Positions 40,369 through 61,638 are shown, counted from the stretch's first letter. The stretch is DNA of 64,000 nt from an uncultured Verrucomicrobiae bacterium (GCA_963754775.1 CAVWHM010000023.1:94481-158480); one strand, 5' to 3'. The notes: generated by a model not told the origin, from the sequence alone. Numbers and translations: made by a program.

Positions 40369-40393
40369 ACCGTCCCCGAAGCCACGAGAAATT

Positions 40394-42079: not shown

Positions 42080-42126
42080 CTGGCGCGTCCGGCAGGACTT
42101 GAACCTGCAACCTTCTGATCCGAAGT
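42080..42126 (-). repeat. 47-bp direct repeat equal to the 3' half of tRNA-Arg (distal att site of the integrative element)
   Basis: 46/47 identical to 61561-61607. The only difference is a/g at the base corresponding to tRNA position 39. Identity ends exactly after ccgaagt, in the anticodon loop. Confidence 0.9.
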
Positions 42127-42167
42127 TATTTCCTTGACAGTTTTGACGGGTTGCCTAAAATCGCCTC

Positions 42168-43670
42168 ATGCAGCGAGAAAAGCAAGCAAATATGCCTATG
42201 AAATCAATATCTTTGAGCAATCCGGCAAAACCCGCCGCAACCCCGGTTGCAACGGGTCGCAACCTGAAAAGTGGCAGCAAAGTGGCAGCATTTTCCGACG
42301 AGCACGAACCCGCAAAATGGGCGGGCCGTTGGTCGAATCTGGCCGCCGACCACGTGAAGCGATGGGAAAAGCGTCTCTACGTCCCGAAATCCGGCCACGA
42401 GGGGGATGTTGTTGAAGCCCGCCGACTCGCCGTGCGGATTCAACACCTGGGCAGGCGCGAAGAATTTCGGTTCGAGACTACGAACCGCCAGGCTGCCGCC
42501 ATTCAAGCACTGGAAGTGTTCCGTTTCCTCAAATCGAATGGCTGGCCGGCCACGCTCGCCAAATACAAGCCCGAAGTCGAAAAGGTGAAACTCAACACCA
42601 CGATTGGCGATTACCTCGTCGCCGTCCATGATACGAACCGCCTGCGCTCCCGCACTTTTTTGAACTATCAAAACGCGCTGCGAACCGTCGCCGCCGAAAT
42701 CTTCGCCGTGAAGCTGGACAAAGGCGCGTCGAAATTCGATTACCGGAGCGGCAACCGCGAGCAAAGCGGGCGCGCCACATGGATTGGGAAGATTGACGCG
42801 CACCGGCTGGGCGAACTCACGCTGGAAAAGGTCACGGATTGGAAGCGCAAACGCGTCGTCCGCGCCGGAAACTCGCCCGCTGCCATCGCCTCCGCCAAGC
42901 GCACGGTCAACTCTTACATACGCTGTGCCCGCTCACTGTTCGCCCCCGGCATCGTCCGCGAAGTGAAGGGGCTGACGCTGCCCGACACGCTGCCCTTTGT
43001 CGGCGTTGAACTCGAAGAAACCGGCTCGATGAAATACGTCAGCAAGATCAACGCGCAAACCCTCATCGCCGCCGCAAAGCGCGACCTCAAAACCAAAGAC
43101 CCGGAAGCCTACAAAGCTTTTCTGCTTGGTCTGTTCGCTGGCCTGCGAAAAGCCGAAATTGATTCGTTGGAATGGGGGATGATTGATTTTTCGGACAACA
43201 TCATCCGGCTGGAACAAACCGAATGGCTGCACCTGAAAACTGACGATTCCGCCGCCGAAATCACCGTTGACCCCGAAGTGCTGGTCGAACTTCGCGCCAT
43301 GATACCGGAGCCAACAGACAAGCCGGCACAATGGAAGCAATTTGTTCTCGTCGGCACTCGTCCGCCGCGTCCCGAATCACCCCGGCCCTATTACCGCTGC
43401 GAAGAAACGTTTGAGCGGTTGAACGCATGGCTGCGGAGCAAGGGCATCACCGCCAACAAACCGCTGCACGAACTGCGGAAGGAACTCGGCGCCCTGATTG
43501 CGACTGAGCAGGGCATATACGCCGCGAGCCGTTTTTTGCGGCATTCCGACATATCCACCACCGCGCGCCACTACGCCGACCACAAGGCACGCATCAGCGT
43601 CGGTTTAGGCAAATACCTCGACACGTCCATCGGTGTTCCCTCGCAGCGAGCCAAAGCCGCCGTCGCATGA
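42168..43670 (+). CDS. tyrosine recombinase / phage-type integrase
   Basis: 500-aa intact ORF with C-terminal catalytic signature GLRKAEI (R), HELRKELG (HxxR), FLRHSDISTT (H) and ARHYAD (Y). The true start is uncertain, because the arm-type repeat lies at codons 34-41. Confidence 0.85.
   Translation: MQREKQANMPMKSISLSNPAKPAATPVATGRNLKSGSKVAAFSDEHEPAKWAGRWSNLAADHVKRWEKRLYVPKSGHEGDVVEARRLAVRIQHLGRREEFRFETTNRQAAAIQALEVFRFLKSNGWPATLAKYKPEVEKVKLNTTIGDYLVAVHDTNRLRSRTFLNYQNALRTVAAEIFAVKLDKGASKFDYRSGNREQSGRATWIGKIDAHRLGELTLEKVTDWKRKRVVRAGNSPAAIASAKRTVNSYIRCARSLFAPGIVREVKGLTLPDTLPFVGVELEETGSMKYVSKINAQTLIAAAKRDLKTKDPEAYKAFLLGLFAGLRKAEIDSLEWGMIDFSDNIIRLEQTEWLHLKTDDSAAEITVDPEVLVELRAMIPEPTDKPAQWKQFVLVGTRPPRPESPRPYYRCEETFERLNAWLRSKGITANKPLHELRKELGALIATEQGIYAASRFLRHSDISTTARHYADHKARISVGLGKYLDTSIGVPSQRAKAAVA
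42267..42291 (+). promoter_or_regulatory. 25-bp repeat aaaaGTGGCAGCAaaGTGGCAGCAt (candidate arm-type integrase binding site), left copy
   Basis: Perfectly identical to 61465-61489 in the same orientation. Internally it holds two GTGGCAGCA direct repeats. Confidence 0.5.
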
Positions 43671-44128
43671 AGAAACAGGCTGCTCCAAATCAAAGTGCCT
43701 TGCGTCGGAATCTTCTGGAACGCATCCGCGAGGCTTCGTTCCCTGCCGATTTTGACAAGTTCCATTGGCGGGAGTTGGAAGACGCCGGGTTGCTGGGTGG
43801 CTTTGTGAATCAGGGCTTGGACGCAAAGACATTCCGGCTCTTCGTGTTGCTCGCCACACAAGCAAAGGAACTACGCAAACAGCGCGACCGGCTGGCTCGC
43901 CGCGTTGAACTCTTGGAGCACTACCATTCGCCCCAGTGGGATGCCGTTTGGGAAGAACCATGCCCTATCAAAGCGGCCGCGCTTCGGCGCGAAGCGGAGG
44001 CAGACGACGCTCGCATCAACGAGCAGCGCCGCAAACAACGCGATCCGCTCGCGGGCTTTTTGGAAATGTTGGGCAAGGTTAAACGGCGCGACTGGGAGTT
44101 TCGAGACAAACGGCGGCGTCATCGCTGA
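43667..44128 (+). CDS. hypothetical protein (island)
   Basis: 153-aa ORF sharing ATGA with the integrase stop. Basic, coiled-coil-like C-terminus. No family recognised. Confidence 0.45.
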   Translation: MKKQAAPNQSALRRNLLERIREASFPADFDKFHWRELEDAGLLGGFVNQGLDAKTFRLFVLLATQAKELRKQRDRLARRVELLEHYHSPQWDAVWEEPCPIKAAALRREAEADDARINEQRRKQRDPLAGFLEMLGKVKRRDWEFRDKRRRHR

Positions 44129-44155
44129 TTCCGAGCCGTCTTGTGGCACGAGCCA

Positions 44156-44596
44156 ATGTCCGTAATGGACTACCACGAAGCGACGGGGTTAAGCCGCCGC
44201 ACAATTCAGAACAGGCTCGACCGTCTTGGTGCCCGACCAATCGCCGGGCGCAAGCGGCCTAACGAGCCAGCGCGCTATGGTCCGGGAGCGAATCATGCAT
44301 TGCTGTGCGACTGGCTTATCCGATACGTCAAAAACCCGAATGCGCGCCGCGGATGGCTCGCTCGCACACTGGTTCACTGCCAACACGAGACGCCGACGCA
44401 TTATGCTCAATTGTGTGAATCCATCCGGCCAGTGTTGGAATCTTTGAGTATTCAAACGACGGCGCAACGCCAGCAATTCGTTCGTTACTTGGGGGAGTGC
44501 AAAGTGATACTCCATCCACCGCCACCGCCGCCGACTTTTTTGGAAGACCCTCTTTCCATCCTAGGCATAAGCGGCCTCCAGGTCGCGTCTCAATAA
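44156..44596 (+). CDS. hypothetical HTH-containing protein (island)
   Basis: MSVMDYHEATGLSRRTIQNRLDRLG is helix-turn-helix-like. The remainder is unrecognised. Confidence 0.45.
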   Translation: MSVMDYHEATGLSRRTIQNRLDRLGARPIAGRKRPNEPARYGPGANHALLCDWLIRYVKNPNARRGWLARTLVHCQHETPTHYAQLCESIRPVLESLSIQTTAQRQQFVRYLGECKVILHPPPPPPTFLEDPLSILGISGLQVASQ

Positions 44597-44808
44597 CGTC
44601 GGCTGGCACTGTCCATTTGGTCATGGGCTGTGGGAAAATCCGGGCTTCTCCAAGCTTGTTTTTTTCTTTTGAGAAACATTCCGGCCAATTTCCGTGGGAA
44701 AACCGTCCCTCTTTTTCGCTTTAGTGCGTCCGTGTGACTTACGTTGTGGCCGTCAACACTGCGTTGACCTTCGTTGTGTGCTGCAACGATGAGCCGGGGA
44801 ATAAACAG

Positions 44809-45057
44809 ATGATTGATCAAGTTGAACAGCCGGCAGCCGGCAGGCCTGCCGCGAGCAAAACCACCCGTGGGACAGACGGCAGCAAATTCTTCACGCCGCG
44901 CCAGGTGGCAGACCGCTGGGGTTGGCATGTGGAAAGTGTGCGCCGGGCCATTCGCCAAAGGCGGATTGAATCGGTCGTGCTTTCCCGCCGGCTGCTCGTG
45001 CCCGTTGAGGAGGTCGAGCGGCTTGAACGCGAAGGACGCATAGCCCGCGCTGCTTGA
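44809..45057 (+). CDS. excisionase-family / MerR-like HTH DNA-binding protein
   Basis: KFFTPRQVADRWGWHVESVRRAIRQRRIESVVLSRRLLVPVEEVERLE matches the excisionase-type helix-turn-helix pattern. Confidence 0.6.
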   Translation: MIDQVEQPAAGRPAASKTTRGTDGSKFFTPRQVADRWGWHVESVRRAIRQRRIESVVLSRRLLVPVEEVERLEREGRIARAA

Positions 45058-45119
45058 AAGCCGGTCGTCTTCACCGACCAAATCGGTGAAGACGACTGGC
45101 AAAGCAGGATTACCAGATT

Positions 45120-45764
45120 ATGAGTAACAGCGACACGGAGTCACAGAGTTACGGAGACACTGACGACACGCAGGACTCGAAGGACGTTCCGCCCCTTGCA
45201 ACGTCCGTAAAGACGCTGCAAGAGGCGGTCCAACTCTCCCTCAAGGATGGCCTGACTGACAAGTGCCTGTTCATCTTCGCACGTGCGCTCAAGTCTTTTG
45301 AAAGAACTCATAACCGCCCCCTGCCGCCAAAAGAGTTGGACGCAGCTTTCGCGCTTTGGTGGAGCGCGGCGACGCCGCTGCTGACGCCTGCTGACGACTT
45401 CGACGAATGGCGACTCGATTTCCTGGCCACGTTCTCAAAGACGAAGTCACCGCTCGGCTCGAACTCACTTCAGGAAGCCATACTTCGTGCCAAGGCCGGT
45501 CCAATGCCGCCTCAAGCCGAACGTTACACCAATCCCAAAATCAAGCTCCTGGTCGCCGTCTGCTGCCACCTACAACTGCTGCAAGGCGATAGCCCCTTTT
45601 TCCTCAGCGCCCGCGCCGCCGCAAAGGTCATGGAGATGAAGAATCCTGAGCAGGCAAGTGCCATATTGACCGGACTTGTGTTCGATGGTGTTTTAACCGA
45701 AGTGAAGAAGGGCACACGCGCCGGAAGGCGGGCCACCCGATTTCGGTTCAACTTCGGCGAGTGA
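45120..45764 (+). CDS. hypothetical protein (island), acidic N-terminus, possible winged-helix C-terminus
   Basis: 214-aa intact ORF. No family recognised. Confidence 0.4.
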   Translation: MSNSDTESQSYGDTDDTQDSKDVPPLATSVKTLQEAVQLSLKDGLTDKCLFIFARALKSFERTHNRPLPPKELDAAFALWWSAATPLLTPADDFDEWRLDFLATFSKTKSPLGSNSLQEAILRAKAGPMPPQAERYTNPKIKLLVAVCCHLQLLQGDSPFFLSARAAAKVMEMKNPEQASAILTGLVFDGVLTEVKKGTRAGRRATRFRFNFGE

Positions 45765-45955
45765 TCTTGTAGCGCACGCGGCAGCTCCGCGCCGCCGCGC
45801 CGGCACACGGCCCGCCCGTGCGCGAGACGCAGTGGCGGGATGGTGCCCGGATGCGCCTCGGCTCGATTCCGGCCCGAAACGCGCGGCACACGCAACCCGA
45901 CACAACCCATAGTGCAAGCAGGCTTGCTGGGCAGACCGCCTCCTTTTGAAATGAA

Positions 45956-46330
45956 TTTTTCCGCCAGCCAATGGGTTTTAAGTGCGGGTAGATAGACCTC
46001 CTGCCTGGGGCAATACCCGCTGCCCTTGTTTGAAGGGGGCCAGTTTTCCCCGGGCCCGCCTGCCTTTCTTTTTAACTGGCGCACTTTTCCCCGCCAGCGA
46101 ATCTCGCCGACAGCCAAACCCAGCCTGTCCTTTTGGAAAACTTTTCCGGGCGATCTAACCCGTGTCCGCCGTCGAACGCTCGCAAATGTCCGTTTTGAGC
46201 CTGCTGCTTTTATTAAGCCGTGCTACTTTTTTATACATGTATTTTTACTCGCGTACTTTTCTCAGAGCGCCGCTATTTCGGCCCGTTGCCGGTCCGTCCT
46301 TTTCAGAACTTGGATACTTTTCCCGGCTTC
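45956..46330. repeat. ORF-poor region with about 10 dispersed CTTTTCC / ACTTTTC motifs (iteron-like)
   Basis: tttttccgccagcc 45956; cagttttccccgggcc 46041; cacttttccccgccagcg 46082; gtccttttggaaaacttttccgggcg 46127-46152; tacttttttata 46224; cgtacttttctcag 46252; gtccttttcagaac 46296; gatacttttcccggc 46313. Confidence 0.5.
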
Positions 46331-46788
46331 ACCCCTCATGCTGACTTGATGCCGTCCTTGTTCGCAAAAAAACGGCCACCGTCAGCTAACGTTTGGCCGT
46401 CTTGCCTGCACCAGCCGACGGCTTACGGTAATTCACCGGCCCGGGTTCACGCAAAACGGTGGGTTTGGCCAGCGCGCTTTCGAGGATCAACACGCTGCCG
46501 TCACGGTAAGTCACCACGGCGCTGCCGTCCGCGAATCGTTGGCGTCGCGGCCGTGCTTCTGTCTTGCTGGTTCTCTGTGGTGGACGTGGCATTGTGCGTC
46601 AGGTGAATTTCGCTCCTTTCTGCCACTGGCGCAAGCTGGCTCGCCGGTCTCAAAAAAAATCGCGCGCGACGGCCCGGCGTCAGCCACCATACACTCACCC
46701 TCTCCGCCTCGAACGGGGAGAACCGGCAGTTGTCTAATGAATCATGCCCTTCACTTCGTCACAAACATGAAAAACAACGTATGGAGAA

Positions 46789-47077
46789 TTGAATATGAAA
46801 CTGAACATTAAAGCATTCGCGCTCACCTGCGGTATCCTCTGGGGGCTGGGGCTGTTTTTTCTTACCTGGTGGTTCATCGCATTTGACGGTTCCACCGGCC
46901 AACCCACACTCATTGGCAAGATATATCGTGGCTATACGGTTTCCCCAATCGGCAGCGTCATAGGGCTGGTATATGCCTTTTTCGACGCTTTGATCGGCGG
47001 CGCGATTATTTGCGTGGCTCTACAACAAAATAGCGGGTTGCACCGACGCCAAGCCGACAGGTGACAAAAGCGCCTGA
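46789..47077 (+). CDS. small 2-3 TM membrane protein (DUF5676-like from memory); one frameshift near 47005
   Basis: MKLNIKAFALTCGILWGLGLFFLTWWFIAFDG...YAFFDALIGGAI, then LFAWLYNKIAG... in the next frame, ending at TGA 47075-47077. Confidence 0.45.
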
Positions 47078-47123
47078 CCCGCTTCGAGCAATGCGGGATG
47101 GCACGGCAATCGTTCTGCACCCC

Positions 47124-47207
47124 TCAACTTTCAACTTTCAACCTTCAACCTGCTCAAATACACGCCGGATGAACTGAATTCCACACTCCGCATTCCGCAT
47201 TCCGCAT
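47124..47207. repeat. two short tandem heptamer arrays (TCAACTT x4 degenerate; TCCGCAT x3)
   Basis: tcaactt tcaactt tcaacct tcaacct at 47124-47151. tccgcat x3 at 47187-47207. Confidence 0.8.
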
Positions 47208-47303
47208 TCGGGATGGCCAGAGTTGCCCGACGGCCATGCCTCGATTTGAACACGGTTAGCAGTTAATTTTCAACTGCGACGTTCGCAGATTTGCATTGAA
47301 GTG

Positions 47304-47861
47304 CTAAGAAAGAATGAAGCCCAATCCTTTCAGGACGAGACGCGTGGTGGGGCGGCTTAGTCTCTCTCCCCTTCCGTGAAATCCTCGCAAGTCGCCAAAT
47401 GGATAAAACGCCGATAAAGTGAAGACATGGTCGTTGAACTCCCTAGCATAATCCAGAACATCAACGATGGCCTGTCTCATCATTGCATCCGTTGGTCTGC
47501 TGCCGTGCATGACTTTGTCGCGAACGGACTCTGCATCCTTTAATTTTTTTGCCGCGGACGGTTTAACAGACTGGCCGAACAGGGATTCAAACAAAGCCCT
47601 GAAACTATCCCGCGTGAGATGTTGTTTTTGTATTACTTGGCGGGCCATATCGGCATCGGCGTGATGAAGTTTGACGACGCCGCAGTAAAGAGTGTCTCGG
47701 TGCGCCAACTCTACTCGATAGAACAAATAAGCAAGGCAGACTTCAAGGGGCAATGTTGGCTGAATCAAATCCGAAAAATACGTGAAGTGCGGCTGTACAC
47801 CCGCCGGCAAATTCGCAAAATGATTCAACAAACTGTTCCGGTTTGGGAATGGATTAGGCAT
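47304..47861 (-). CDS. HEPN-like protein (Rx4H motif), last gene of the restriction operon
   Basis: The start ATG overlaps the res stop (TAATG at 47859-47863). 185 aa, low GC, predicted all-helical. AESVRDKVMHG fits the HEPN Rx4-6H signature. Confidence 0.5.
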   Translation of the reverse strand: MPNPFPNRNSLLNHFANLPAGVQPHFTYFSDLIQPTLPLEVCLAYLFYRVELAHRDTLYCGVVKLHHADADMARQVIQKQHLTRDSFRALFESLFGQSVKPSAAKKLKDAESVRDKVMHGSRPTDAMMRQAIVDVLDYAREFNDHVFTLSAFYPFGDLRGFHGRGERLSRPTTRLVLKGLGFILS

Positions 47862-50559
47862 TACTCGTATTTCCCGCTGGTCTTCTTCCTGATCGCTTCC
47901 AAATCTTTCCCCTCCGGCATCACGAACAGGCATTTCCCGCCGCTGCGACCTTCCCACACCGCGCCGACGGCGCGCTTTTCCTCCGCGTCAGCAAATAAAT
48001 GTTCGCCCTTGTATTCCACGACCAGTTCGCGTCCGTCATTCAGTTGGCAAAGGAAGTCGGGATAAAACCAATTCTTCGAGGTTTGCAGCCGGAACGAAGT
48101 CGCCTTGTTCGCAAGATTCCGCACCCAAAACTTCACTTCCGGCAAACCGTCGAGGAACTGCGCGCATTGAAATTCCTCTTTCAGTTTGCCGCTCGGCGTC
48201 GTTTCCAGCAGTTCGCCGGGCTTTGGGCCGAAGTAATGATTCTTGAACTGGAAACCGCCTTCATAGAGCCAGCTCGGCTCATAGCTCATCGTCTTGAAAT
48301 TGATCGACGCGCTCGTCGCTGACGGTCAGGGCGGAATCCGGCAAAAGAAATTGCTGGAACGCCGCCTTCCGTTCGCTGTCGCGGTGCTGCTGGATCCGTT
48401 CCTCGACTTCTTCCCGCAAGCGGAAGCGGTCCAGCGCCAGCACGCTCATGTCGGCGATTCCAAACTTCGCCATCAGGCCGCGAATCACCTTTCGCAAAAA
48501 CTCCGCCGATTCGCCGGCGGGAATGTCCTGATGGTCAATGTGCCGGTCGAGCCAGCCGACCAAATCTTCCAGCTGTCCAATCGCCCGAACCACCCAGCGC
48601 GATCACTTGTTGGTGCAACGTCGCCACGAAATCACTGTCCGGCTTGTCCTGCAACATGCTCGTCTGCACTTCGCCTTTCGCGCCCACGTCCACCAGATCC
48701 CGCCTTGCCTGCTGGCCGCTTCAGCGGGTTGTAGCCGTCAGCCAGCGAGGCGTCCTTCGCGCTCAATTTCCACGGATGCTCCAAGCAGAAACGTGCTCTC
48801 GAACTCAAACAACATTCCATTCTCGCGCACGCAAAGCAGCGGCACGATGAAATCAATCTGCTTTTCGTAAGGCGACGGCTCGCGTGTTTTGCCGCTTCCG
48901 CCAAACGCCTTGTCCATCTCGCGCACCAGTTCGACCGCTTCGGCAACTTTCGCTTTTGCTTCCGGCGTCTTCACGCAACTCGCCAGCTTCTCCGCTTCAA
49001 CCTTGTCGAGCGGGACGAGCACGGTGATTGCGCCGCTGGCCGTATCAATCCGCGCCTTGCCCGCCAGTGCCGTCACTTGTGCTTGCGCCACCGTCGCGTC
49101 AATGTCCGCTGGCGACACCTGCACCGTCTTGGGTTGCGCGCCGAGTGGCAGCGCGCCTTGCGAAACGGGAATGATAATCCGTTCCGCTTCCGCTCGCGTG
49201 AATCCGTTGCTTTCCAGCGCCTCCCGCAACTCGTTCAAAACTTCCGGCAACGAATCCGAAACGGAAAACGCATACGCGCAATTCAAGTCGGGATGCTGTT
49301 TCGCCTGCGCGTTCGGCAGGCGGAGAATGCGCCCGACGATTTGCTCAATCGCCGTGGCCGAGCGCGTCTCCTTCAAGCTGCAAAGCACATAGGCAAACGG
49401 ACAATCCCAGCCCTCGCGCAACTTTCTGCACCGTGATAATGAAACGCACCGCCGGCTCTTTCGACGATTTGATTTCTTCCGCGCTCGGCAATTCGTCGTT
49501 GCGTGCCAACCGAAATTTTCACTTGGTCTTTGGCGATGCCAAACTCGTTCGCCAACCGCTCGCGCAACGGCTCGCACGCATCCACCCGCTCCGCCTGAAT
49601 CAGCATGATCGGGCGCAAATACTCGCCGGTCTTTTGCGCCTCGGCGATTGCGATTTTTTCCAAGTCGCCGCGCAACGTGATGGCTTCGGACAGCAATTGA
49701 TCGCGCTGGCTTGGATGCCGGGTGATTACGCGCAACGGCAGCTTCACCATGTCCGCCGCCTTCAATTCCGCCGCTGAAACATGATGCAGCACATTCGACG
49801 GCGCTGCGCCGGTGCGCGCGGGCGTGGCGGTGAATTCCACGATGCACGACGGCAAAACATTTCCCAGCGTGGCAAAGCGACAAATCCGTGCGCGCGTTGT
49901 GCGCCTCGTCAACGATGACGATGGGGCGGCGCAACCGCAGCATGTTGACCAGCGACGGTTTTGGTTTTCCATCCGCGCCCGGCAGCAAATCCGCCAGCCG
50001 GTCGGCGGGCACGTTCAGCAAATGTTCCGAAAAACTTCCGTTCTGGTCATAAACTTTCCGCCCGGTCGTGTCTTCCACGCGAAATGCCTGAATCGTGGAA
50101 ACAATGACAACCGTTTGCCCGTCCACCGTTGCACGCGGAAGCCGCAACGCTTCTTCAATCGTCACCACTTCCACCGAACCGCACGCCAGTTCCAATGCGC
50201 GGCGATACGGATGGCGCGGGTCACGCAACGCATCGGCGGTCTGGTCGAGAATCGTGTTGCTCGGCACGAGCCATAGCACTACCGCGCGTTCGGCGCGCAT
50301 GAAATCCGTCATGGCCAGTCCCGCCGCGTGACACGCCAGCAACGTTTTTCCGCCGCCTGTCGGCACGCGCAGGCAGACATAAGGCATCTGCGGTTTCATC
50401 CCAGCCGCGTTCACCGGAATGTAAGGTATGAGCCGTTCCGAAAGTGCGCGCCGTGATTTCGCGGAAAGCCGGGTCAGGATTCTGCTCGCGCGCCGCGATG
50501 CGGAAGAAATCCCGCAGCGAATCCAGCACCCGCGTTTGATAATCTTTCAGCGTTATCAT
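47861..50559 (-). pseudogene. res: type III restriction enzyme Res subunit (SF2 helicase plus C-terminal PD-(D/E)xK nuclease); about 5 frame breaks
   Basis: Motif I is RVPTGGGKT and motif II is IVIVDEAHNA. The C-terminal fragment 47861..48289 has FYPDFLCQLNDGRELVVEYKG. The N-terminus MITLKDYQTRVLDSL starts at 50559. Fragments lie in several frames (ORFs 50221.., 48738.., 49373.., 48279.., 47861..). Confidence 0.75.
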
Positions 50560-52174: not shown

Positions 52175-52182
52175 GGCGGTGG

Positions 52183-53196
52183 TTACTCGGTTTCGTCCAG
52201 TGGCTCCGGCACGTAAACACGTTTCAGCGGGAGCAGGGCTTTGTAGCGCGAGTCGAATTGCTCGTAGTGTTGGAGAATGAGCGTGACCAATTCGTCGCCG
52301 TCAATCAACCGCAAGTTGCTTTTGTTGCGAGCAAAGGCTTTGGCTTGGGTCGTGAAAGTTCCAAGCGTGACCACCAACCCGAATTCGGAACGCTCGACCT
52401 TGCCGTTGAGTTGTGACACGACAGGTTCGCCGATAGTTCCTTCAGCGCTTTTGACCTGCACTTTGACGAGCGGCGGCTCGAAACCAAGTTCGTCTTTGTG
52501 CGCAATAATATCCACGCCGCCGTCCGGCCCTTCGGGTGAAAGTCTGGTGCGATAACCCATCGTCGCCAAAAGGTGCGCGACAAACTCCGCGAGCGCATGG
52601 CCTTTCAACTCTTGGGCCAGCAACTTGACGATGTAATCGCGGGTTGTTTGTTCGATGTCTTCCGCGACGTAGGAAACGGAATCGTCCTGCTTCGGCGGTT
52701 GTGCCGTGGGCTGGCCTGTGAGGGCGGCAAGGAATTCGTCGGCAAACTGCCGGACTTGGAAGAAGCTCAACGCAGAGCCGATTTCGTAAAGCGCGCCCTG
52801 CGAGAAATGGGTGCGGGGAATTGCTTTTAGCCATTTTACCGGCCTCTGCCGCGGATAACCCGGCTGGGGTTTAGTGTCGTGTTTGGCCGGGCCGGTGATT
52901 TCCCCGATATGAACCAAACGGTCGCTCTTGGATGGATAAATGACGAGGTCGCCAGTCTTTACTTCGTGAACGAAACGGAAAAGCTGGCCGGCAGCATTGC
53001 GAATAAAGCCCTCCGGGCGAGTGGGGTAGCACTCTTTTACGCGGGACTTAAAGGCTTCACGGTCGGCGGGCAACTTTGTGACATCCCCGACTTCTACAAA
53101 GCCAAGCGCAATAACGTTGTGCGTGAGGAAAAGTTGGTCGGCATCACCCGTTTTCCCGGCGTGGATGCCCCAAAGGGTAGAAGGTTGCTTGCTCAT
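52183..53196 (-). CDS. Mrr-type restriction endonuclease (C-terminal Mrr_cat-like domain) with an unassigned roughly 150-aa N-terminal domain
   Basis: 337-aa intact ORF. The C-terminal part is GPDGGVDIIAHKDELGFEPPLVKVQVKSAEG...VVTLGTFT (D...QxK core). It ends 8 nt before the mod ATG. Confidence 0.7.
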   Translation of the reverse strand: MSKQPSTLWGIHAGKTGDADQLFLTHNVIALGFVEVGDVTKLPADREAFKSRVKECYPTRPEGFIRNAAGQLFRFVHEVKTGDLVIYPSKSDRLVHIGEITGPAKHDTKPQPGYPRQRPVKWLKAIPRTHFSQGALYEIGSALSFFQVRQFADEFLAALTGQPTAQPPKQDDSVSYVAEDIEQTTRDYIVKLLAQELKGHALAEFVAHLLATMGYRTRLSPEGPDGGVDIIAHKDELGFEPPLVKVQVKSAEGTIGEPVVSQLNGKVERSEFGLVVTLGTFTTQAKAFARNKSNLRLIDGDELVTLILQHYEQFDSRYKALLPLKRVYVPEPLDETE

Positions 53197-53265
53197 GCAG
53201 ATTGGCTGGCATCGTAGTCAACGCAAGTCTCAACGGAAAGGAAAACTAGCGGCTCGCACGATTGC

Positions 53266-53790
53266 TCATAACAACCCTGTAGGCGGCAATTGCCCCGTAT
53301 AAACGATTTCGATGCTGACGACTTGAGGGTTCAAAATCACAACGCCGCCGTCGGTTCGTCGGCTGGGAAAGTAAATGCCGCTCGCGTTGTCCATCGTTCC
53401 CAAAGTTTGAAGGCACTCGACTACGAATTGAGACTTGAAATACTGCCCGGTCTGGAGGTCGCGGTCGTTGTAGATGGCAGTCAGGAACGGTTCTGGCAGT
53501 TTGCTCATGTTCCAGACCGGCGTCTCTTGGCGTAGTTTTGACCACTCGTAAATGGGTGTTCCCGATGGTCTCGTTTCGGCAACAGCCACTTTGAATGTGT
53601 CGCCGTACCAGTTGCCGCTATCGCCGGGCAGCTTGAAGCTTCCTCCTCCCGTCGAGACGAACCCGGTCCAATACTTCTGCGCGTCCCCAGTCACAGCTCT
53701 ACACATTGGCTGTCCCGCCGGCATATTGTCCAACAGACTGTTTCCGCTGGCCATGAGCCAGCCCGATATTTGTGAATAATAATTTTCCAT
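53266..53790 (-). CDS. hypothetical protein (174 aa, lower GC) upstream of the Mrr-like gene
   Basis: Intact ORF. No motif recognised. Confidence 0.35.
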   Translation of the reverse strand: MENYYSQISGWLMASGNSLLDNMPAGQPMCRAVTGDAQKYWTGFVSTGGGSFKLPGDSGNWYGDTFKVAVAETRPSGTPIYEWSKLRQETPVWNMSKLPEPFLTAIYNDRDLQTGQYFKSQFVVECLQTLGTMDNASGIYFPSRRTDGGVVILNPQVVSIEIVYTGQLPPTGLL

Positions 53791-53869
53791 ATACCATCAT
53801 TTACACGCACAGCAGACGGAATTTGTGGTCTAACGCAACTTTTTCTCAAATTTTGTTTTTCACATTTGA

Positions 53870-56800
53870 CTAGATTATGTGTAGGGCCGGAAGGTCTTTC
53901 GGACTGCCCGTTCTAGTTCTTGGTTTCCCCGCCCGCAACACTCGCAACGAAAATCCCCGCCCATTCTCGAACGGCTCGACCGTCGCCGTGACTTCCAGCA
54001 CCGGATACCGCACCGTCGCCAGTCCGTAGCTTTTGTAGGTCTGCGCGAATAATTCCGTTTCCACCATGCCCGTCCAGTCCGCCAGCGTCAGGAATTTCAT
54101 CGGCTCGCCGGTGATCTGGTGATGCGTGCGCTGCTCCACCACCAGCCCGCACGTCACCACCGTCTCGCCGACGTGTTCGCCCAGCCGCGCCACGGGGCAA
54201 TAGGTGTCCCAAGCCACGTCGTCAAATAATTCCAGCGGATGCCCGCTCACCGCGTAGCCGAACAATTCCGTCTCGGCCTCCAGTCGTTCACGGCGCGTTG
54301 GTTCGCGCAGCAAGGCCGGATTCGCGCGAAGAAATCCGAAACCGGATTCGTGCGCGCCGTCAAAATCAAATTCCAAATTCCGTGCCCGGTTTCTGCCTCG
54401 CTGCCACTGCTCTGATGCAGTTGCTGCGCCTCCCAAAACTGCCGCGTGCGCGTCTGGCCAAATTCATCAAAGCCGCCCGCGCGAATCATCGCCTCCAATT
54501 CTTCCGGCGACGGCTTTACGCGGCGATGAAAGTCGGCCAGCGAAGCGAACGCTCCGCGCTCGCGCTCGGCCAGCAGCCGTTTGCTGGTGCGGTCGGTCAG
54601 TCCTTTGGCGCGGGTCAGCGGCACACGGATCGCATTGCCATGCGACCGCGAACTGCGGGCCCGGTTCGTTGACGGTCGGCGGCAGGAATTTCAACCCGAG
54701 CCGGTAGCTTTCCAGCACATAAACCAGCGGGTCATAAAAGCCTTTGCCGTTGGTCAGCACGGCCGCCATGAACTCCGCCGGGTAATTGCGCTTGAGCCAG
54801 GCCGATTGATACGCCTCGACGCCATAGGCCGTGGAATGCGCCTTGCAAAAGGCGTAGCCGGCAAAGCCCGCGACCAGTCCCCACACTTCCTCAATCTTTT
54901 CCGGCGCGTGTCCGCGCGCCCGCGCCGACGCGAAGAATTCCTCCTGAATCTCCGCGATGACGGCGCGCTTCTGTTTGTTCAACGCCCGGCGCAACACGTC
55001 CGCCCGGCCCGGCGGCAAGCCGGCAAACGCCTCGCAGATTTGCAGAATGTGCTCCTCATAAACCACCAGCCCGAACGTGTCGCGCAACACGGGTTCCAGC
55101 GACGGATGCGGATACGTCACCGGCTCCAGCCCCTGATAGCGCCGCGTGAACGCCAGCTTCTTGCCTTCGTTGGCCGCGCCGGGCCGGATGACGCTCACGA
55201 TGGCGATGAGCGTGTCAATGTCCCGCACGTTGCACTGGCGGCACAGGCCGGTCATGGCCGGGCTTTCGATGTGATGCACCGCCCGCGCCGCCGCCGGAAA
55301 TCATTTCCCAAACCTGCGGGTCCTGCCACGGCTCCAGCGCGTTCAAGTCCACGGTGATGCCGCGCTTGGCCAGCGACGCCTTCACGTCGCGCATCGCCGC
55401 CAGCCCGCCTTGCGCCAGCACGTCAATTTTCACCAGGCCGATGGCTTCCACGGCGTCCATGTCGAAATGCGTGGTGGGATAGCCTTTGTTGGAAATGAAC
55501 GTCGGCGTCAGTTCGTGCATCGGCTGGCGCGACAGCACCACGCCGCACGGGTGCATCTTGGGATAGCGCGGAAAGCCGTCGAGAAACTCCGCCATGTCCA
55601 GCGCGGTCTTGAACGGTTCTTCGTTCAACGGCAGGTCGCGGTTTTCGGGACTGGCGGCGAGCAGTTCGCGCAACTTCGCCCCGCCGCTCGGCGTGGGTTC
55701 GTCCGGCACCCAGCCGCCGCCGAAGCTCCACGGAAAATGTTCGGTGAACCGGCGCACTTCGCGTTCGGCCACGCCCAGCACCTTCGCCACGTCCGCAAAC
55801 GCGCTGCGGGCCTGAAACGTCGAGAAGCCGCCCACCACGGCGCAATGCTCCCGGCCATATTTGGCGAAGATGAGGTCCACCACGTCGTCTTTCCGGTCAT
55901 GCGGAAAATCAATGTCAATGTCCGGCAGCTTGTTCAGCGCCATGCGTTCCTCGTTCAGAAAGCGCCGGAAATAGAGGCCGAAGCGGATGGGGCAGACATC
56001 GGAAATGCCGAGGCAATAGCACACGAGCGAGTCCGCCGCGCTGCCGCGCGTGATCCATTCGATGCCGTGCGCGCGGCAATCTTGCAGGATGTTCCAGACG
56101 ACCAGAAAGTATTCCTCGTAGCCGACGGCGCTGATGATGCGCAATTCCTGTTCGATTTGCGGGCGCATGGTTGCGAGTGCGATCGCCGTAGCGCCGCGCG
56201 CGCCGTCCACACGAGCTGGTGAAGAAATTCGCGCGGCGTGGAACCGTCCGGCGGCACGAACGCGGGAAACTGCGGCTTGCCGAACGGCATTTCAAAATTG
56301 CAGCGTTCGGCGATTTCCAGCGAGTGCGCCAGCCATTCGGGATGTTCTTTGCACGCCGCCGCCATTTCTGCCGGCGTGCGAAAATGAAACCGTCCGTCCG
56401 TTGCGTTTGGACGGATGTTCCTGGCGGAGCAACGTCAGCGTGCGGATGGATTGCACGATGTCGTATTTCATCCGGTCGTCCGGCGCTGGCGTAATGAATC
56501 GCCGGACAGGCGACGACGGGAAAGTCCTAGCTCCGCACCCGGTAGGGACGCGCTGCCGCGCGTCCGGCCGATGAGGTGCTCTCGTCTGTGCCATCTGATA
56601 AAAACGTCCGGGAAACAGTTCGGCCAGCCGCAAGTCCGGGCTGACGGCAATCAAGCCGTCGGTGAATCCGTCCAGACGTTCAAACGCGATAGGGCGGCGC
56701 TGCTGCGCCGCAACCGCGCCTTCCTCGTTGCTCTTTCTCGGCTTGGCGCGACAACAGCCGATTCAAATTGTGATAGCCGCGCGCGGATTCGACAAAGAGC

Positions 56801-56915
56801 AAAAGCGGAGTTGTCCTTGGTGGCCGTTGCAAGGACCAATTCCGTTCCGAAAATCGGTTTGATGCCTGCGCGCTTCGCCGCCTGCGCAAACTCCACCGCG
56901 CCGTGCAGACCTGCC
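53870..56915 (-). pseudogene. dnaE2: DnaE-type DNA polymerase III alpha, probably error-prone DnaE2 (ImuC); at least 6 frame breaks and the extreme N-terminus missing
   Basis: PHP region: GLHGAVEFAQAAKRAGIKPIFGTEL. Palm/fingers: DIDIDFPHDRKDDV, KIDVLAQGGLA, VSVIRPGAANEGK, GYAFCKAHSTAYG. C-terminal OB fragment: 53870..54436. Total size is about 1,030 codons, and an adjacent Y-family fragment argues for dnaE2. Confidence 0.7.
56541..56565. repeat. GGTAGGGACGC-family hairpin inside the dnaE2 remnant
   Basis: ggtaGGGACGCGctgcCGCGCGTCC. Compare hisC 3866-3890 (ggtaGGGACGCGgtgccCCGCGTCC). Confidence 0.65.
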
Positions 56916-57005
56916 CGATTTGAGCCAGTCCTGCTGCGTTCAATCGCACGGCGGTTTTCGGTCCAATGCCCGGCAACCACTTATTCGGCAGGGAGTGAAG
57001 AAATT
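56915..57005 (-). pseudogene. fragment of a Y-family polymerase (ImuB/DinB-like HhH segment) fused to the dnaE2 remnant
   Basis: QEKQFLHSLPNKWLPGIGPKTAVRLNAAGLAQIGQ matches the LP...LPGIG.KT...L...GI.T.G motif. It is truncated on both sides. Confidence 0.5.
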
Positions 57006-57007
57006 GC

Positions 57008-58229
57008 TTTTCCTGTCCGCCCCGGCAGCAGAGTTGCTGAAGGATTGGCGCACGGGTCAAAACACCCAACATTCAATGACGGCGCTGTTGCGGCAGTCTC
57101 TCTACAGCCGGTTGGCCGGTTACGAGGACACCAACGATGCCGAGCGGCTGGCGGTCGATCCGGCGATGCGGCAGGTGGTGGGCGGGCGGGCGACCGAACA
57201 CACGGCGGCTTCGACCAGCCAGATGGGACGTTTCGAGACCGAAGTGTTGACCCAGCCGAAGAACCTGAACGCCTTGACGAAGTTGTCCGGGACCTGGATC
57301 GACCGGCTGCGGGAACACAGACGCCATGCGGGAACTGGTCTTGGACATGGACAGTTCCGTGAGCGAAACCTACGGCGAACAGGAAGGCACGGCCTACAAC
57401 GGACATTTTGCCTGCACCTGCTATCATCCATTGTTTTGCTTCAACCAGTTTGGCGACGTGGAAGGCGCGCTGCTGCGCGAGGGCAACGTGCACAGTGCCA
57501 AGGATTGGCGGGCAGTGCTGGAACCGGTGGTGGCCCGCTATCCTGCTCGCAAGCTTCGGCGTTATTTTCGGGCGGACGCCGCCTTTGCCCAGCCGGAACT
57601 CTATGAGTATCTGGAAGCCGAAGGATTTGAATATGCCATCCGCCTGCCCGCCAACGATGTATTGCTGCGGGAGATTGAGCCAATGCTGACCCGGCCAGTG
57701 GGCCGTCCGTCCAATACGCCGGTGGTCCGGTATGCCGGCTTTTTGTACCAGGCCAAGAGCTGGAATCGGTCCCGGCGGGTGGTTGCCAAGGTCGAATGGC
57801 ACAGAGGCGAACTGTTCCCCCGCATCGGGTTCATCGTGACCAACCTGACCCGGCCCGGCCAAAACGAGTGGTGCGGTTTTACAACCAGCGGGGAACGGCG
57901 GAGCAATGGATCAAGGAAGGCAAGAATGCGGTCAAATGGACGCGGCTGTCGTGCCATGATTTCGTGGACAATCAGGTGCGGCTGCACCTGTTCGTGCTGG
58001 CCTACAACCTGGGCAACTTTCTGCGGCAGGCGGTGCTGCCGCGGGTCAGTAAGGCACTGGACATTAACGACGCTGCGGGAGAAATTGATCAAGATCGGAG
58101 CCAAGGTGGTGCGTCATTCCCGGAAGATTGTCTTTCCAGATGGCAGAGGTGGCGGTTCCGCGAGCGTTGTTCCGGTCCATTCTTCAGGCAATAGACCGCT
58201 TGCGCCTGCCCGCCAGGGCCAGCGGATGA
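57008..58229 (+). mobile_element. IS1380-family-like transposase gene, 5'-truncated with at least 4 frameshifts (IS remnant)
   Basis: LKDWRTGQNTQHSMTALLRQSLYSRLAGYEDTNDAERLAVDPAMR, then LDMDSSVSETYGEQEGTAYNGHF, VVRFYNQRGTAEQWIKEGKNAVKWTRLSC, LREKLIKIGAKVVRHSRKIVF and QMAEVAVPRALFRSIL. Family call is from memory of DDE_Tnp_1_4-type proteins. No inverted repeats identified. Confidence 0.6.
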
Positions 58230-58514
58230 ATGAAAATTGAATGAAAGCAACCATCCACACAGGTGAAGTGTCGTCGCCTCCGGCTCAACCGGCTGGCTGG
58301 GGCCGGAAAATCTGGCGGCGGCTCCGAAAAACACGTTTTGGGCGTGCGAAAAGGCTTGCACAGACAAGCGTTGGGAGGATAATCGCCAAAGCGACCGGAG
58401 AAACTCAATTGGCACCATGAACATCAAGTCAAATGGGAAATCCCGGATTGACGCGTTGCCGTTCAGGAATCAAGATAACCCACGATTCCCAAAGCTCTAA
58501 ACGACCCAAAAACT

Positions 58515-59439
58515 ATGAAAAAATTACTCATCTCCACTGTCATTCTCCTCACTGCGGCAGCTATTGCCAATGCCCAACTCTCCGGCCTCGTCTACAATTC
58601 GGGGACGGGCAATTGGGAGTATCGCGCCCTAAACCCAATTTCAGGCGCAACCACCCTGCTGAATGCCTTTGCGATGCCCGATGGCTTTGATTCTTTTTTC
58701 GACCGATCCTTCCGGCGGCTCTGCTTATGTGCAGTCCGGCAGCACCCTTTACGACCTCAACCTTGCCTCCGGGGCCATTTTGAATACGCCAACTCTGGAC
58801 ACGATGATCGCCGGCTATGGCGTCGGTAACGGCGGGTTGGTCGGCCTCGACTATAACTCGGGCACCGGCAATTGGGAGTATCGTGACATTAATCCAGTTA
58901 CCGGCGGCACAACCTTGTTGAATTCTTTCACTTTGCCCGATGGGTATGAAAGTAGTTCTTTTTTGACCGATCCTGCCACCAGCTCTGCTTATCTGCAGTC
59001 CGGCAGCACCCTTTACGACCTCAACCTTGCCTCCGGGGCCATTTTGAATACGCCAACTCTGGACACGATGATCGCCGGCTATGGCGTCGGTAACGGCGGG
59101 TTGGTCGGCCTCGACTATAACTCGGGCACCGGCAATTGGGAGTATCGTGACATTAATCCAGTTACCGGCGGCACAACCTTGTTGAATTCTTTCACTTTGC
59201 CCGATGGGTATGAAAGTAGTTCTTTTTTGACATATCCATCCACCGGTTCCGCTTACTTTTTGTCAGGCAATACGCTCTACGACTTGAATCTTGCTTCCGG
59301 TGCCATTTTGAACACTTCAATACCGGACCAGACGATGCAGGCAATCGGAATAGACCCGGTTCCGGAGCCGTCCCCATTGGCATTGGCCGCTTTGGGCGGA
59401 CTGGCCTTTTTGCTGCGCTTGCGCAAAAAATCAGCTTGA
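58515..59439 (+). CDS. PEP-CTERM-anchored secreted repeat protein (three 88-aa repeats); one frameshift near 58700
   Basis: Signal peptide MKKLLISTVILLTAAAIANA. Repeat unit: NSGTGNWEYR..NP..G.TTLLN.F..PDG...S. C-terminal VPEPSPLALAALGGLAFLLRLRKK is the PEP-CTERM sorting signal. Confidence 0.75.
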
Positions 59440-59619
59440 GGCTGAGCAGTTTTTAGTGTCCAACCAACGGGAAGAAGGCGGGCGCCACAGCCACAACACA
59501 GCCACCCCCAGCCCCGCCAGCACAACGCTGGACGGCTCCGGTACCAGGACGATTTGCGATCAAACCGCTTCGTGAGGCTTCTTCAATTCCGCTCTATCCG
59601 CATGTCGTTCACCACCGAG

Positions 59620-59833
59620 TTCCAGACGGACGCGAGCGTGGTGACAACGTCAACGAAGTCGAAGCCGAGAGAATTGCTGCGCTTATCTGCGCTGCAATTG
59701 AGCAACCAGAATTTGAGAAGAACGATGAAGGGAAAGCGACAAGTTTCGGGGTCGTATCATTGGTTGGTGATAAGCAAGCCCTGAAAATTGATGCCATCTT
59801 GCGCCATCGAATCGAACTGGCGGAATACAACTA
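59620..59833 (+). pseudogene. possible fragment of an SF1 (Upf1/DNA2-like) helicase gene
   Basis: NVNEVEAERIAALICAAIEQPEFEKNDEGKATSFGVVSLVGDKQALKIDAILRHRIELAEYN* resembles the region between helicase motifs in AAA_12-type proteins. No flanking helicase sequence is present. Confidence 0.3.
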
Positions 59834-59895
59834 AATACCTTGCGACAAGCGGTTCAGCAGGCTGATAGGTGACGGTTGACAGGGTTACGGCTATA

Positions 59896-60834
59896 TCAAT
59901 CTGCGTTAAGCATCGCCTCAATCGTTTCGAGCGCATTTCCTTCAAGCCGATTGTTCACGTAGATGAACGTCTCTCGCCCCGGCCCGGCCTTTTTACCATC
60001 CGCGATTAATGTCTTGCCGGCCTCACGCGCCTGCGGGTTCGGTTCCTTCACCTTGTCGTAGGGCTGGAATGTCTTCACCGCTTCCTCGTATTTGCGTCCG
60101 GGCTTCAGGAGAAAACGCGCGACCATCAGATTCGGATTCGTGCGGCTGCCGGGCAACGCCATTTGTTCGTTCACGGCTGGCATGGCATCCCATGAATTGA
60201 AAATGTGTGTGACACCGTGCCGGGCCAGACAGCCAAAGTATTCAGGGGTCAGCCAGTGCTTGTTGCGCATCTCAATCGCGTAAGGCCAGCCCTTCGGCAG
60301 CTTGCCGAGAAACGTGTCAAGGTCGGCCACAAAATCGCGTCCGTGTTCGTAGTCGCTCGGCCAGAACCTTGAGAACTCAAACATCAGCACGCCGATCTTG
60401 TCCCGAATTTCCTCACACGGATTAAGAAATGCGCCTGCAAACAACTCCGCGTTGAGAAAATTCGGGTTCGGCTGTCCTGCCTTCGCGCCGAAGCGCGCCA
60501 GGTTCGGAAACTTCTTGATCGTCACCGCGTCAGTCACCTTGAAACCAAATCGAAAATCATCGGGCACGGCGTCGGCCAATTTTTGCAGATATTCGGGGCG
60601 CGGGAAATCGTAATACGCCGCGTCCACGCTGACCGTCTTGAAAACCTCCGCGTATTCGCTCAAACAATCCCGCTCAAACCGGGTCTTGGCGACTTTGCCG
60701 CGATACTCGTAACGCGCAGGCGTGTAGAGTTGACCGAACCAGCCTTCATATTTCCAACTCGACGTGCCGATGAACACGCCACTGGCGGCAAGCGCCGCCG
60801 CCGTTTTTTTCATCTGGTCACGGTCAAAGGCCAT
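59896..60834 (-). CDS. DUF72-family protein
   Basis: FIGTSSWKYEGW...SVDAAYYDFP...FRFGFKV...VLMFEF...YAIEMRNKHW...FIYVNN pattern. I place the start at MAFDRD (60834). Confidence 0.65.
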   Translation of the reverse strand: MAFDRDQMKKTAAALAASGVFIGTSSWKYEGWFGQLYTPARYEYRGKVAKTRFERDCLSEYAEVFKTVSVDAAYYDFPRPEYLQKLADAVPDDFRFGFKVTDAVTIKKFPNLARFGAKAGQPNPNFLNAELFAGAFLNPCEEIRDKIGVLMFEFSRFWPSDYEHGRDFVADLDTFLGKLPKGWPYAIEMRNKHWLTPEYFGCLARHGVTHIFNSWDAMPAVNEQMALPGSRTNPNLMVARFLLKPGRKYEEAVKTFQPYDKVKEPNPQAREAGKTLIADGKKAGPGRETFIYVNNRLEGNALETIEAMLNAD

Positions 60835-60990
60835 GTTCCGAAATTGTAGGTTCCCCCGCGTCGTGTCAACGTCTGCCGAACACCAATTGGCCCTTTTGCC
60901 ACAAATTTCCGCGCAGACGAATCCATCGGGCACCTTCGACTCGCCCGCCGCGAGCTACCCCCCCCCCGCCCCCTCACCTTTCTGTTCCGG

Positions 60991-61302
60991 TCAAAGCGCC
61001 AGCAATATCGCTTCCTGCTCCTGCCACGGCACCGGTTCCGGCGGGTGGTCTGACATCGCCGGGCCATCGGAGGGCGCGAGCACTTCTGACATGGCAATGT
61101 CGAACGCTTCGTCTTCACCGAGTCCGCGCTCCTGCTTCAACTTGTCCACCAGTCGTAGCGCCTGTTGCATCTTCTTCTCAAGATGATTCCTCAGCTTGCC
61201 CTCGCGGTGAAGTTGCCGGACCAACTCCGGTTGGTTCTCAAACATCCATTCAAGGTGGACTCGTTCCCGGCTGTCAGGGAAGCTGTCTGGTTCCGCACTC
61301 AT
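60991..61302 (-). CDS. small hypothetical protein, TnpV-like by loose resemblance
   Basis: MSAEPDSFPDSRERVHLEWMFENQPELVRQLHREGKLRNHLEKKMQQALRLVDKLKQERGLGEDEAFDIAMSEVLAP. Resemblance is judged from memory only. Confidence 0.3.
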   Translation of the reverse strand: MSAEPDSFPDSRERVHLEWMFENQPELVRQLHREGKLRNHLEKKMQQALRLVDKLKQERGLGEDEAFDIAMSEVLAPSDGPAMSDHPPEPVPWQEQEAILLAL

Positions 61303-61464
61303 CGTCGTTTTGTCCACGGTGCGAAACAACAACAGGCAAGTCAACGGCACAGCACAGGCTTGTCAGCCGGCGCGAAGAAAGAGTCGCTGGAACACTCCGC
61401 AACTCACTGTTCGCGCGCTCGCGCGGGCGAATTGGACTGCCGGCGCGACGGGAACGGGGACTTA

Positions 61465-61489
61465 AAAAGTGGCAGCAAAGTGGCAGCAT
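61465..61489 (+). promoter_or_regulatory. 25-bp repeat aaaaGTGGCAGCAaaGTGGCAGCAt, right copy (candidate arm-type site), 72 bp inside the tRNA-proximal junction
   Basis: Perfect match to 42267-42291. The flanks are also similar (gcRacggg...ctKaaaag). Confidence 0.5.
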
Positions 61490-61561
61490 GAAGATTTTTT
61501 TGCGTTAAAACGAAGAAACACATAAACACACAAAAGCATTGCAAACACTGAACAAAATAGC

Positions 61562-61638
61562 TGGCGCGTCCGGCAGGACTTGAACCTGCAACCTTCTGGT
61601 CCGAAGTCAGAAGCTCTATCCAATTGAGCTACGGACGC
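61562..61638 (-). tRNA. tRNA-Arg (anticodon UCG), 77 nt with encoded CCA
   Basis: Manual fold of the reverse complement: acceptor GCGUCCG/CGGACGC; D arm GCUC-AAUUGGAUA-GAGC; anticodon arm UCUGA-CUUCGGA-CCAGA (A31/C39 mismatch); variable loop AGGUU; T arm GCAGG-UUCAAGU-CCUGC; discriminator G; CCA. Confidence 0.85.

Follow-up and report, generated by a model that had tools for sequence, protein, structure and literature searches.

A genomic island in the tRNA-Arg(UCG) gene of an uncultured Verrucomicrobiae bacterium, very probably placed by a tyrosine integrase and carrying apparently decayed cargo

How did 19.4 kb of DNA come to lie between an intact tRNA-Arg(UCG) gene and a displaced copy of that gene's own 3' half? 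We address this question in a stretch of 64,000 nucleotides from an uncultured Verrucomicrobiae bacterium (GCA_963754775.1 CAVWHM010000023.1:94481-158480), hereafter the window, in which positions 42127-61560 very probably constitute a genomic island integrated into the tRNA gene by a tyrosine integrase. An original prediction, made from the sequence alone, had proposed an integrative element at this site, and it is borne out here by empty sites in relatives, by the coupling of tRNA fragments to the integrase and by complete related elements in two other loci (L002 and L003). Feature coordinates are collected in Table 1.

Alignment confirms the 47-bp direct repeats, identical at 46 of 47 positions, that had been predicted to bracket these 19.4 kb. 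ARAGORN and Rfam both find a single tRNA gene in the window, tRNA-Arg(tcg), and the block that it shares with the displaced copy comprises tRNA positions 31-76 plus one base past the 3' end, taking in position 31 and the entire anticodon loop (positions 32-38). The identity does end after ccgaagt, as first described, though not strictly inside the loop: the boundary is position 31, one base into the stem. The attachment site is of the anticodon-centred class, and no tRNA 5' half was found in the window. A 20-mer from the block at 42080 occurs three times in the window and not once in 100 shuffles.

The sole mismatch between the two attachment (att) sites, A at 42118 versus G at 61599, falls on tRNA position 39. 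All 63 orthologous tRNAs of the related loci carry U39, C39 being found in the window tRNA alone, and the distal copy has U39, the allele of every relative; over its tRNA part (42081-42126) it shows no difference from the tRNA of L008 or of 25 other loci. In the window tRNA, C39 creates an A31/C39 mismatch at the base of the anticodon stem. This base may have been brought in with the replacement 3' half supplied by the island. If it is element-derived, the crossover would lie within the last 8 nt of the block, in the anticodon loop, because the distal copy retains U39 while the rebuilt tRNA has C39.

Is the site occupied in some genomes and free in others? Our comparison set comprises about 90 related loci. 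A genome scan with the integrase yielded seven loci from Verrucomicrobia metagenome-assembled genomes, and a metagenome scan with the BrkB/Rrf2 neighbour yielded 80 loci, of which about 60 keep the tRNA-Arg/BrkB pair. Empty tRNA-Arg sites, the comparison proposed with the original prediction, were found among them. In L014, L030, L038, L043 and L076, a homologue of the native-type flank that adjoins the distal repeat in the window (the 'trailer') lies directly 3' of an intact tRNA gene, which is followed by BrkB, and the same homologue stands to the left of a displaced fragment in L002, L006, L090, L091 and L084. L016 is syntenic with window positions 21058-35687, beyond which the tRNA and BrkB come immediately, while in L028, L037, L070 and L074 the UDG gene lies only about 45-55 nt from the tRNA.

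The displaced fragment and the integrase also travel together. A tRNA 3' fragment stands just before the integrase gene in 13 of the 13 related loci that have upstream sequence, across integrase identities of 53-94%, and 11 of these fragments derive from tRNA-Arg(UCG) and end in ccgaagt. Integrase homologues at 60-63% identity lie beside a Leu(UAA)-like fragment in L093 (~9885-9930) and beside an Arg(ACG)-like fragment in L094 (~9810-9857). Judged by such fragments, target switching among tRNA genes has apparently occurred within the integrase family.

Two relatives are complete elements. L002, with an integrase 92% identical to that of the window and a right flank that is 95% identical, measures 7.4 kb: a tRNA fragment is followed 41 nt later by the integrase, and the intact tRNA-Arg lies 7.4 kb on. 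L003 measures 8.0 kb and has the same layout as the window, with an integrase that is 56% identical. The window element is a member of a family of small Verrucomicrobia elements whose shared core consists of the integrase and an excisionase (Xis)-like helix-turn-helix (HTH) protein; the window copy is a larger and decaying representative. Synonymous divergence (dS) between the window and L002 is 0.26 for the integrase and 0.17 for BrkB, a comparison that does not distinguish vertical inheritance from independent acquisition.

The complete tyrosine recombinase that had been predicted 42 bp inside the distal repeat is indeed there: its open reading frame (ORF) begins 42 nt past the repeat, it matches both PF00589 and the phrog_1 integrase family, and the catalytic residues R327, K357, H434, R437, H459 and Y469 are invariant in alignments with 7 and with 41 homologues. 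Since M11 is invariant in the homologue alignments, translation probably starts at 42198. The ratio of nonsynonymous to synonymous divergence (dN/dS) is 0.16-0.17 relative to L001 and L002, and the gene is therefore under purifying selection. A protein database search returned 673 homologues with E < 1e-5, and the source names, present for few of the 673, are those of Verrucomicrobia. The single NCBIfam match is XerA at 16 bits, far under the cut-off of 220, Pfam finds no DUF4102 in the protein, and PDB sequence searches with the integrase and with its profile gave no match. The AlphaFold model (mean pLDDT 74.6) consists of an N-terminal beta-hairpin (residues 88-101) and helix (107-124), a helical domain and a catalytic domain, and its top PDB folds are full-length lambda Int (1z1b, E 1.4e-6), Tn1549 Int and XerA. 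The match to lambda Int spans about 440 columns at a TM score of only 0.27-0.38, and on this model the protein may have the three-domain build of lambda-type integrases. Ahead of the gene, 6 nt past the core, lies the motif CTTGACAG, which is kept in L002, L003, L093 and L094.

The excisionase-type HTH protein that had been placed about 1 kb further in is likewise present, its ORF lying ~1.06 kb beyond the integrase stop codon. It matches phrog_66, annotated 'excisionase and transcriptional regulator', and with homologues in L001, L002, L088, L089 and L092 it counts as a core gene of the family.

The original prediction had regarded the tRNA-distal position of the integrase as unusual. We find it to be a family trait instead: in the window, L002 and L003 alike the gene sits at the tRNA-distal end and reads inward, and in all other family members it comes directly after the displaced tRNA fragment. 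The position appears to be without mechanistic meaning, because in the circular form the gene would start 42 nt from the core of the element's attachment site (attP) either way. Our literature search on the side of the integrase relative to the tRNA turned up nothing useful, and the Islander database of tRNA islands demands no particular side (Hudson et al., 2015, PMC4383910).

What else might the integrase recognize? The 23-nt sequence AAAGTGGCAGCAAAGTGGCAGCA, made of two GTGGCAGCAAA units, occurs in the window at two places only (expected 0), both inside the element, 141 nt from the core on the distal arm and 72 nt from it on the proximal arm. L002 carries the same GTGGCAGCAAA pair, L003 has 2x GGGGACAGAAA at both element ends, and L004 and L007 have CCGGACAGAMA repeats; in each of the window, L002 and L003, the two arms both carry the repeats, and the spacing from the core is similar. 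A 190-bp arm (61370-61560), repeat pair included, recurs beside the tRNA in L002, L026 and L015. We regard these 11-bp repeats as putative arm-type integrase sites, chiefly because their sequence co-varies with the integrase clade.

On this evidence we propose the following mechanism. The attP of the element, carrying a copy of tRNA positions 31-76, would recombine with the chromosomal tRNA-Arg(UCG) gene, with strand exchange in the anticodon-loop segment. The copy supplied by the element would rebuild the 3' half of the tRNA, and the native 3' half would end up 19.4 kb away, beside the integrase gene. The integrase would bind the core as well as the tandem 11-bp sites (2x GTGGCAGCAAA) on both arms, and the small HTH protein would be the likely excision factor.

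Table 1. Features of the tRNA-Arg(UCG) locus, in window coordinates.
Feature	Position	Strand	Evidence or remarks
14-nt tRNA 3'-end remnant	33496-33509	minus	at intact-tRNA position of empty-site relatives
Third, older tRNA 3'-half copy	40394-40440	minus	44/47 identical to the copy at 42080
Segment between third and second copies	40441-41933		no integrase
APH-family phosphotransferase ORF	40711-41847	minus	PF01636, E 5.9e-14
Native-type flank ('trailer') left of distal repeat	41934-42079		homologue 3' of intact tRNA in relatives
tRNA-distal att site, displaced tRNA 3' half	42080-42126	minus	46/47 identical to 61561-61607
Sigma-70-like promoter, TTGACA-16-TAAAAT	42134-42161	plus, into integrase	promoter scan, 11/12 matches
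Tyrosine integrase	42168-43670	plus	PF00589, E 1.3e-9; phrog_1 integrase, E 1.1e-21
Distal-arm tandem repeat, 2x GTGGCAGCAAA, within integrase 5' coding region	42268-42290	plus	putative arm-type integrase site
Conserved gene beside integrase, in-frame stop at 44126-44128	43667-44596	plus	76% identical over 283 aa to L090/L091 ORF
HTH_17/excisionase-like small protein	44734-45057	plus	PF12728, E 1.4e-4 (under Pfam cut-off); phrog_66, E 1.1e-5
Type III Res pseudogene, one in-frame stop and one frameshift	47861-50414	minus	PADLOC REase_III
Type III Mod pseudogene, frameshift-split	50556-52174	minus	PADLOC MTase_III PDLC03644
Mrr-like nuclease, PADLOC PDC-S02 family, apparently intact	52183-53196	minus	PF04471, E 4.9e-27
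dnaE2-like DNA polymerase III alpha pseudogene, at least 4 fragments	53870-56980	minus	PHP, NTPase, finger and C-terminal regions
DDE transposase, N-terminally truncated (insertion sequence fragment)	57326-58240	plus	PF13701, E 8.9e-60, positions 138-411 of 435 only
PEP-CTERM protein with 264-nt tandem repeats	58663-59439	plus	PF07589; repeat families D1-D3
DUF72 gene, tRNA-proximal element end	59896-60933	minus	PF01904, E 8e-32
Proximal-arm tandem repeat, 2x GTGGCAGCAAA	61466-61488	plus	putative arm-type integrase site
tRNA-proximal att site, tRNA positions 31-76	61562-61607	minus
Intact tRNA-Arg(UCG)	61562-61638	minus	ARAGORN; Rfam tRNA, 66.8 bits

What does the element carry, and in what state? 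The cargo first described holds up for the Mrr-like gene, for Mod and Res (both disrupted), for the dnaE fragments, for the insertion sequence (IS) fragment and for the PEP-CTERM protein, and fails for imuB and HEPN. The conserved gene beside the integrase contains exactly one stop codon in translation, and its counterpart in L090 and L091 is an uninterrupted ORF of 307 aa. Within the Res pseudogene, whose reading frames we took from ORF coordinates, REase_III profile positions 56-241 match ORF 48738-50414 and positions 757-875 match ORF 47861-48289. Within Mod, positions 1-182 of PDLC03644 (ORF 51536-52174) and positions 348-541 (ORF 50556-51131) lie in different frames. Because both genes are disrupted, this Type III restriction-modification (R-M) system would not function as an uninterrupted mod/res pair. 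The neighbouring Mrr-like gene matches PDLC04819 over positions 3-331 of 334 (E 1.6e-136). Real decay is a likelier cause of the disruptions than indel sequencing errors, because nonsense codons accompany the frameshifts. To judge from the reading frames, the cargo is largely dead while the att sites, arm sites, integrase and HTH gene appear intact.

Three candidate genes were set aside. A RES domain in 53266-53790 is doubtful (E 0.004, under the cut-off, with no PADLOC match); the minus-strand ORFs at 56292-58427, candidates for imuB, have no IMS/ImuB match, and their one weak PHP match belongs to dnaE; and ORF 47304-47957, the candidate for HEPN, has no Pfam, NCBIfam or PADLOC match, its visible R-x4-H motif not being evidence. 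Within the PEP-CTERM gene, three 264-nt tandem units that are up to 98% identical span 58583-59336.

Large cargo of the defence type is also found in other islands of the family: the cargo of L094 (11445-20340) includes Eco57I/N6_Mtase, PLD-SNF2 helicase and SMC-like genes, that of L090 (12631-17710) a ResIII gene and a methylase with HigBA alongside, and that of the P0059 locus a type IIG-like enzyme, and L091, like L090, carries Res and a methylase. Such islands apparently carry defence genes as a rule.

Did all of this cargo enter together with the integrase? An account for which the chances stand about even is that a core of integrase, HTH gene and arms later gained the R-M/Mrr block, dnaE2 and the IS and exchanged its DUF72 end. 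Complete relatives are just 7.4-8.0 kb long and have only the integrase, the HTH gene and the two arms in common with the window; the truncated IS abuts the truncated dnaE2; and in L008 an 86% identical DUF72 homologue lies directly beside the tRNA without the proximal arm of the element. In addition, a 267-nt dnaE C-terminal remnant (53918-54184) is 89.5% identical to L006 11465-11731, DNA that abuts the stop codon of the L006 integrase, while the two integrases are only ~54% identical, which suggests a recent exchange of modules between family members. However, there is no internal att copy and no second integrase within 42127-61560, and the R-M and defence cargo of L090, L091, L094 and P0059 indicates that large cargo is normal for the family. 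Later accretion of this kind refines the explanation by integration and does not contradict it.

Can the element still move? We give slightly less than an even chance to the possibility that it integrated as proposed and is now a fixed fossil, unable to excise or transfer and retained as remnants only. The nonsense codon in the conserved gene beside the integrase and the disruption of Res, Mod, dnaE2 and the transposase by stops as well as frameshifts point that way, as does the failure to find replication, transfer or packaging genes in the element, a respect in which relatives differ, carrying a DUF3631 protein (L003) or an AAA_25 protein (L092). The integration module tells otherwise. The integrase retains its full length and every catalytic residue, its dN/dS is ~0.17, the att cores differ by one base only, both arm repeats are identical, the Xis-like HTH gene is intact and conserved, and a near-consensus promoter stands ahead of the integrase, so that the element may have kept its ability to excise.

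The element is very unlikely to be a prophage, an integrative and conjugative element (ICE) or an integrative and mobilisable element (IME). The integrase and HTH protein do match phage-derived PHROG integrase and excisionase families, but no capsid, terminase, tail, relaxase, type IV secretion system or coupling-protein domain was found among the ORFs scanned with Pfam, PHROGs and NCBIfam. IMG/VR scans with the integrase protein and with its alignment returned no relative, and the only matches in GenBank phages are integrases at 30% identity or less. The attP junction pattern was not found in IMG/VR either.

Does the locus record a single insertion? A third, older tRNA 3'-half copy and a 14-nt tRNA 3'-end remnant (Table 1) indicate that it is a layered hotspot instead. 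The third copy, 1.6 kb from the second, ends at the same tRNA base as the other full copies. Of its three substitutions, all absent from 63 orthologous tRNAs, two are uncompensated changes within the acceptor stem, and we therefore read the copy as an older fragment in decay. The stretch that separates it from the second copy has no homologue in any related locus, and the ORF within it, considered as a second integrase, was rejected as an APH-family phosphotransferase on its PF01636 match. The 14-nt remnant corresponds to the location of the tRNA relative to the UDG gene in L028 and is shared by L084.

Positions 33496-40393 hold this remnant, then three TPR paralogues (33600-35690, 36717-38462 and, in split form, 38594-40368) and a GT2 glycosyltransferase; the counterpart is absent in L028 and L030 and consists of one TPR gene in L016 and L084. 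These are older variable layers of the same hotspot. Farther to the left, between tyrS and an M48 peptidase gene, a block of low GC content (22473-28151; 47.9% versus ~59%) encodes Sel1-repeat and trypsin-like peptidase proteins, and in L016 unrelated sequence of about 1.2 kb takes its place. The block was probably gained by horizontal transfer too, and it has no obvious integrase.

That the repeats are leftovers of tRNA duplication or independent pseudogenes unconnected with the integrase, the second of which the original prediction had named as one outcome that would overturn it, is hardly credible: three to four partial copies do share one region and no integrase lies between copies three and two, but all full copies end at tRNA position 31 with no 5' halves beside them in the window, and the 13-of-13 coupling of fragment and integrase in differing chromosomal contexts, together with the empty sites in relatives, comes close to refuting it.

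Several observations nonetheless weigh against integration of the element in the simple form set out above. The closest relative, L008 (BrkB 98% identical, dS 0.07), has neither an empty site nor the element but a DUF72 gene beside its tRNA, so some of what we call cargo may have arrived by inter-island recombination and not with the element. C39 could also be a later point mutation and not derive from the element. The GC content of the element is not anomalous, at 57.4% against 59-61% in the flanks. Finally, the native-type flank stands to the right of both older remnants, an order that a simple tandem-insertion model, with the newest island nearest the tRNA, would not predict. Taken jointly, the order of the remnants, the DUF72 gene of L008 and the dnaE piece of L006 point to recombination and turnover among islands at this hotspot.

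A second small element occurs on the 5' side of the same tRNA-Arg gene in L002 (17414-19167) and L049 (8428-9874), where a repeat of the 5' half of the tRNA, starting at the anticodon loop, bounds it; the L002 copy carries a resolvase fragment and a tyrosine integrase of 395 aa with SAM-like domains. Because of this element, the anticodon loop appears to be used from both sides by two unrelated integrases. Islands with 5' fragments are rare, at 159 of 3919 in Islander (PMC4383910).

How does the element compare with known systems? A close parallel is with Islander, which lists 3919 tRNA/tmRNA islands, 3760 of them with 3' fragments and 2083 with an anticodon-centred attP, as well as 125 tandem arrays with several fragments at one tRNA gene (PMC4383910). 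Like the islands catalogued there, the window has an intact tRNA gene and, on its 3' side, a likewise oriented displaced 3' fragment, with a non-Xer tyrosine integrase between the two, and like the anticodon-centred class it has an identity block that spans the anticodon loop and everything 3' of it in the tRNA. It differs in host phylum, Verrucomicrobia, and in having an integrase clade with neither a PDB sequence relative nor a named family. Unlike a tandem array, its older layers have no integrase of their own and would not count as such.

Among lambda-type heterobivalent integrases (lambda Int, Tn1549/Tn916 Int), lambda Int and Tn1549 Int are the best fold matches of the window integrase, which also has the R-K-H-R-H-Y set, although it is only 12-17% identical to these enzymes and ~130-140 residues longer than lambda Int. 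As in lambda-type systems, repeated sites, putative here, occur on each att arm at a distance from the core and a small HTH protein is encoded nearby. The putative arm sites differ in being simple tandem 11-bp pairs, one of them inside the integrase coding region. P4-like islands have an integrase gene beside the tRNA whose product bears a DUF4102-type arm-binding domain; the present integrase has no DUF4102 match in Pfam, and in the window, L002 and L003 its gene occupies the tRNA-distal end. For phage HP1 and similar elements, recombination takes place within the anticodon loop of a tRNA, whose 3' part the element replaces. The window element resembles HP1 in its probable crossover segment at the anticodon loop and its element-supplied 3' part, and differs in lacking phage genes, in the tRNA that it targets and in the lineage of its integrase. 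Integrase-associated defence islands and mobile-element hotspots carry restriction systems, and the Type III R-M genes and Mrr-like PDC-S02 gene of the window, the Res and methylase genes of L090/L091 and the Eco57I-like, PLD and SNF2 genes of L094 fit this pattern. In contrast to such islands, the Type III genes of the window are inactivated and only the Mrr-like gene looks intact.

Taken together, our findings describe a kind of element already catalogued in thousands and reveal no new mechanism, but they provide a clean, well-bounded example in an under-studied phylum. To our knowledge, mobile elements of soil and peat Verrucomicrobia have barely been described, and we know of almost no genetic tools for this phylum. 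The present analysis maps a hotspot in these bacteria to single-base precision, delimits an integrase family whose target is known and which numbers at least several hundred members, and makes attP, chromosomal attachment site (attB) and arm-site sequences testable. If the window copy or its relatives are active, the integrase/attP pair is a possible tool for site-specific integration in the phylum. A more far-reaching view, tentative and with the chances against it, is that the family represents a Verrucomicrobia-specific lineage of still-active small integrative elements, with a clade-specific 11-bp arm 'code' that lies partly within the integrase gene, retargeting among tRNAs (Arg-UCG, Arg-ACG and Leu-UAA-like) and an anticodon loop shared with an unrelated integrase on the 5' side. 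For the islands themselves, the window copy indicates that defence cargo can decay while the integration module is retained.

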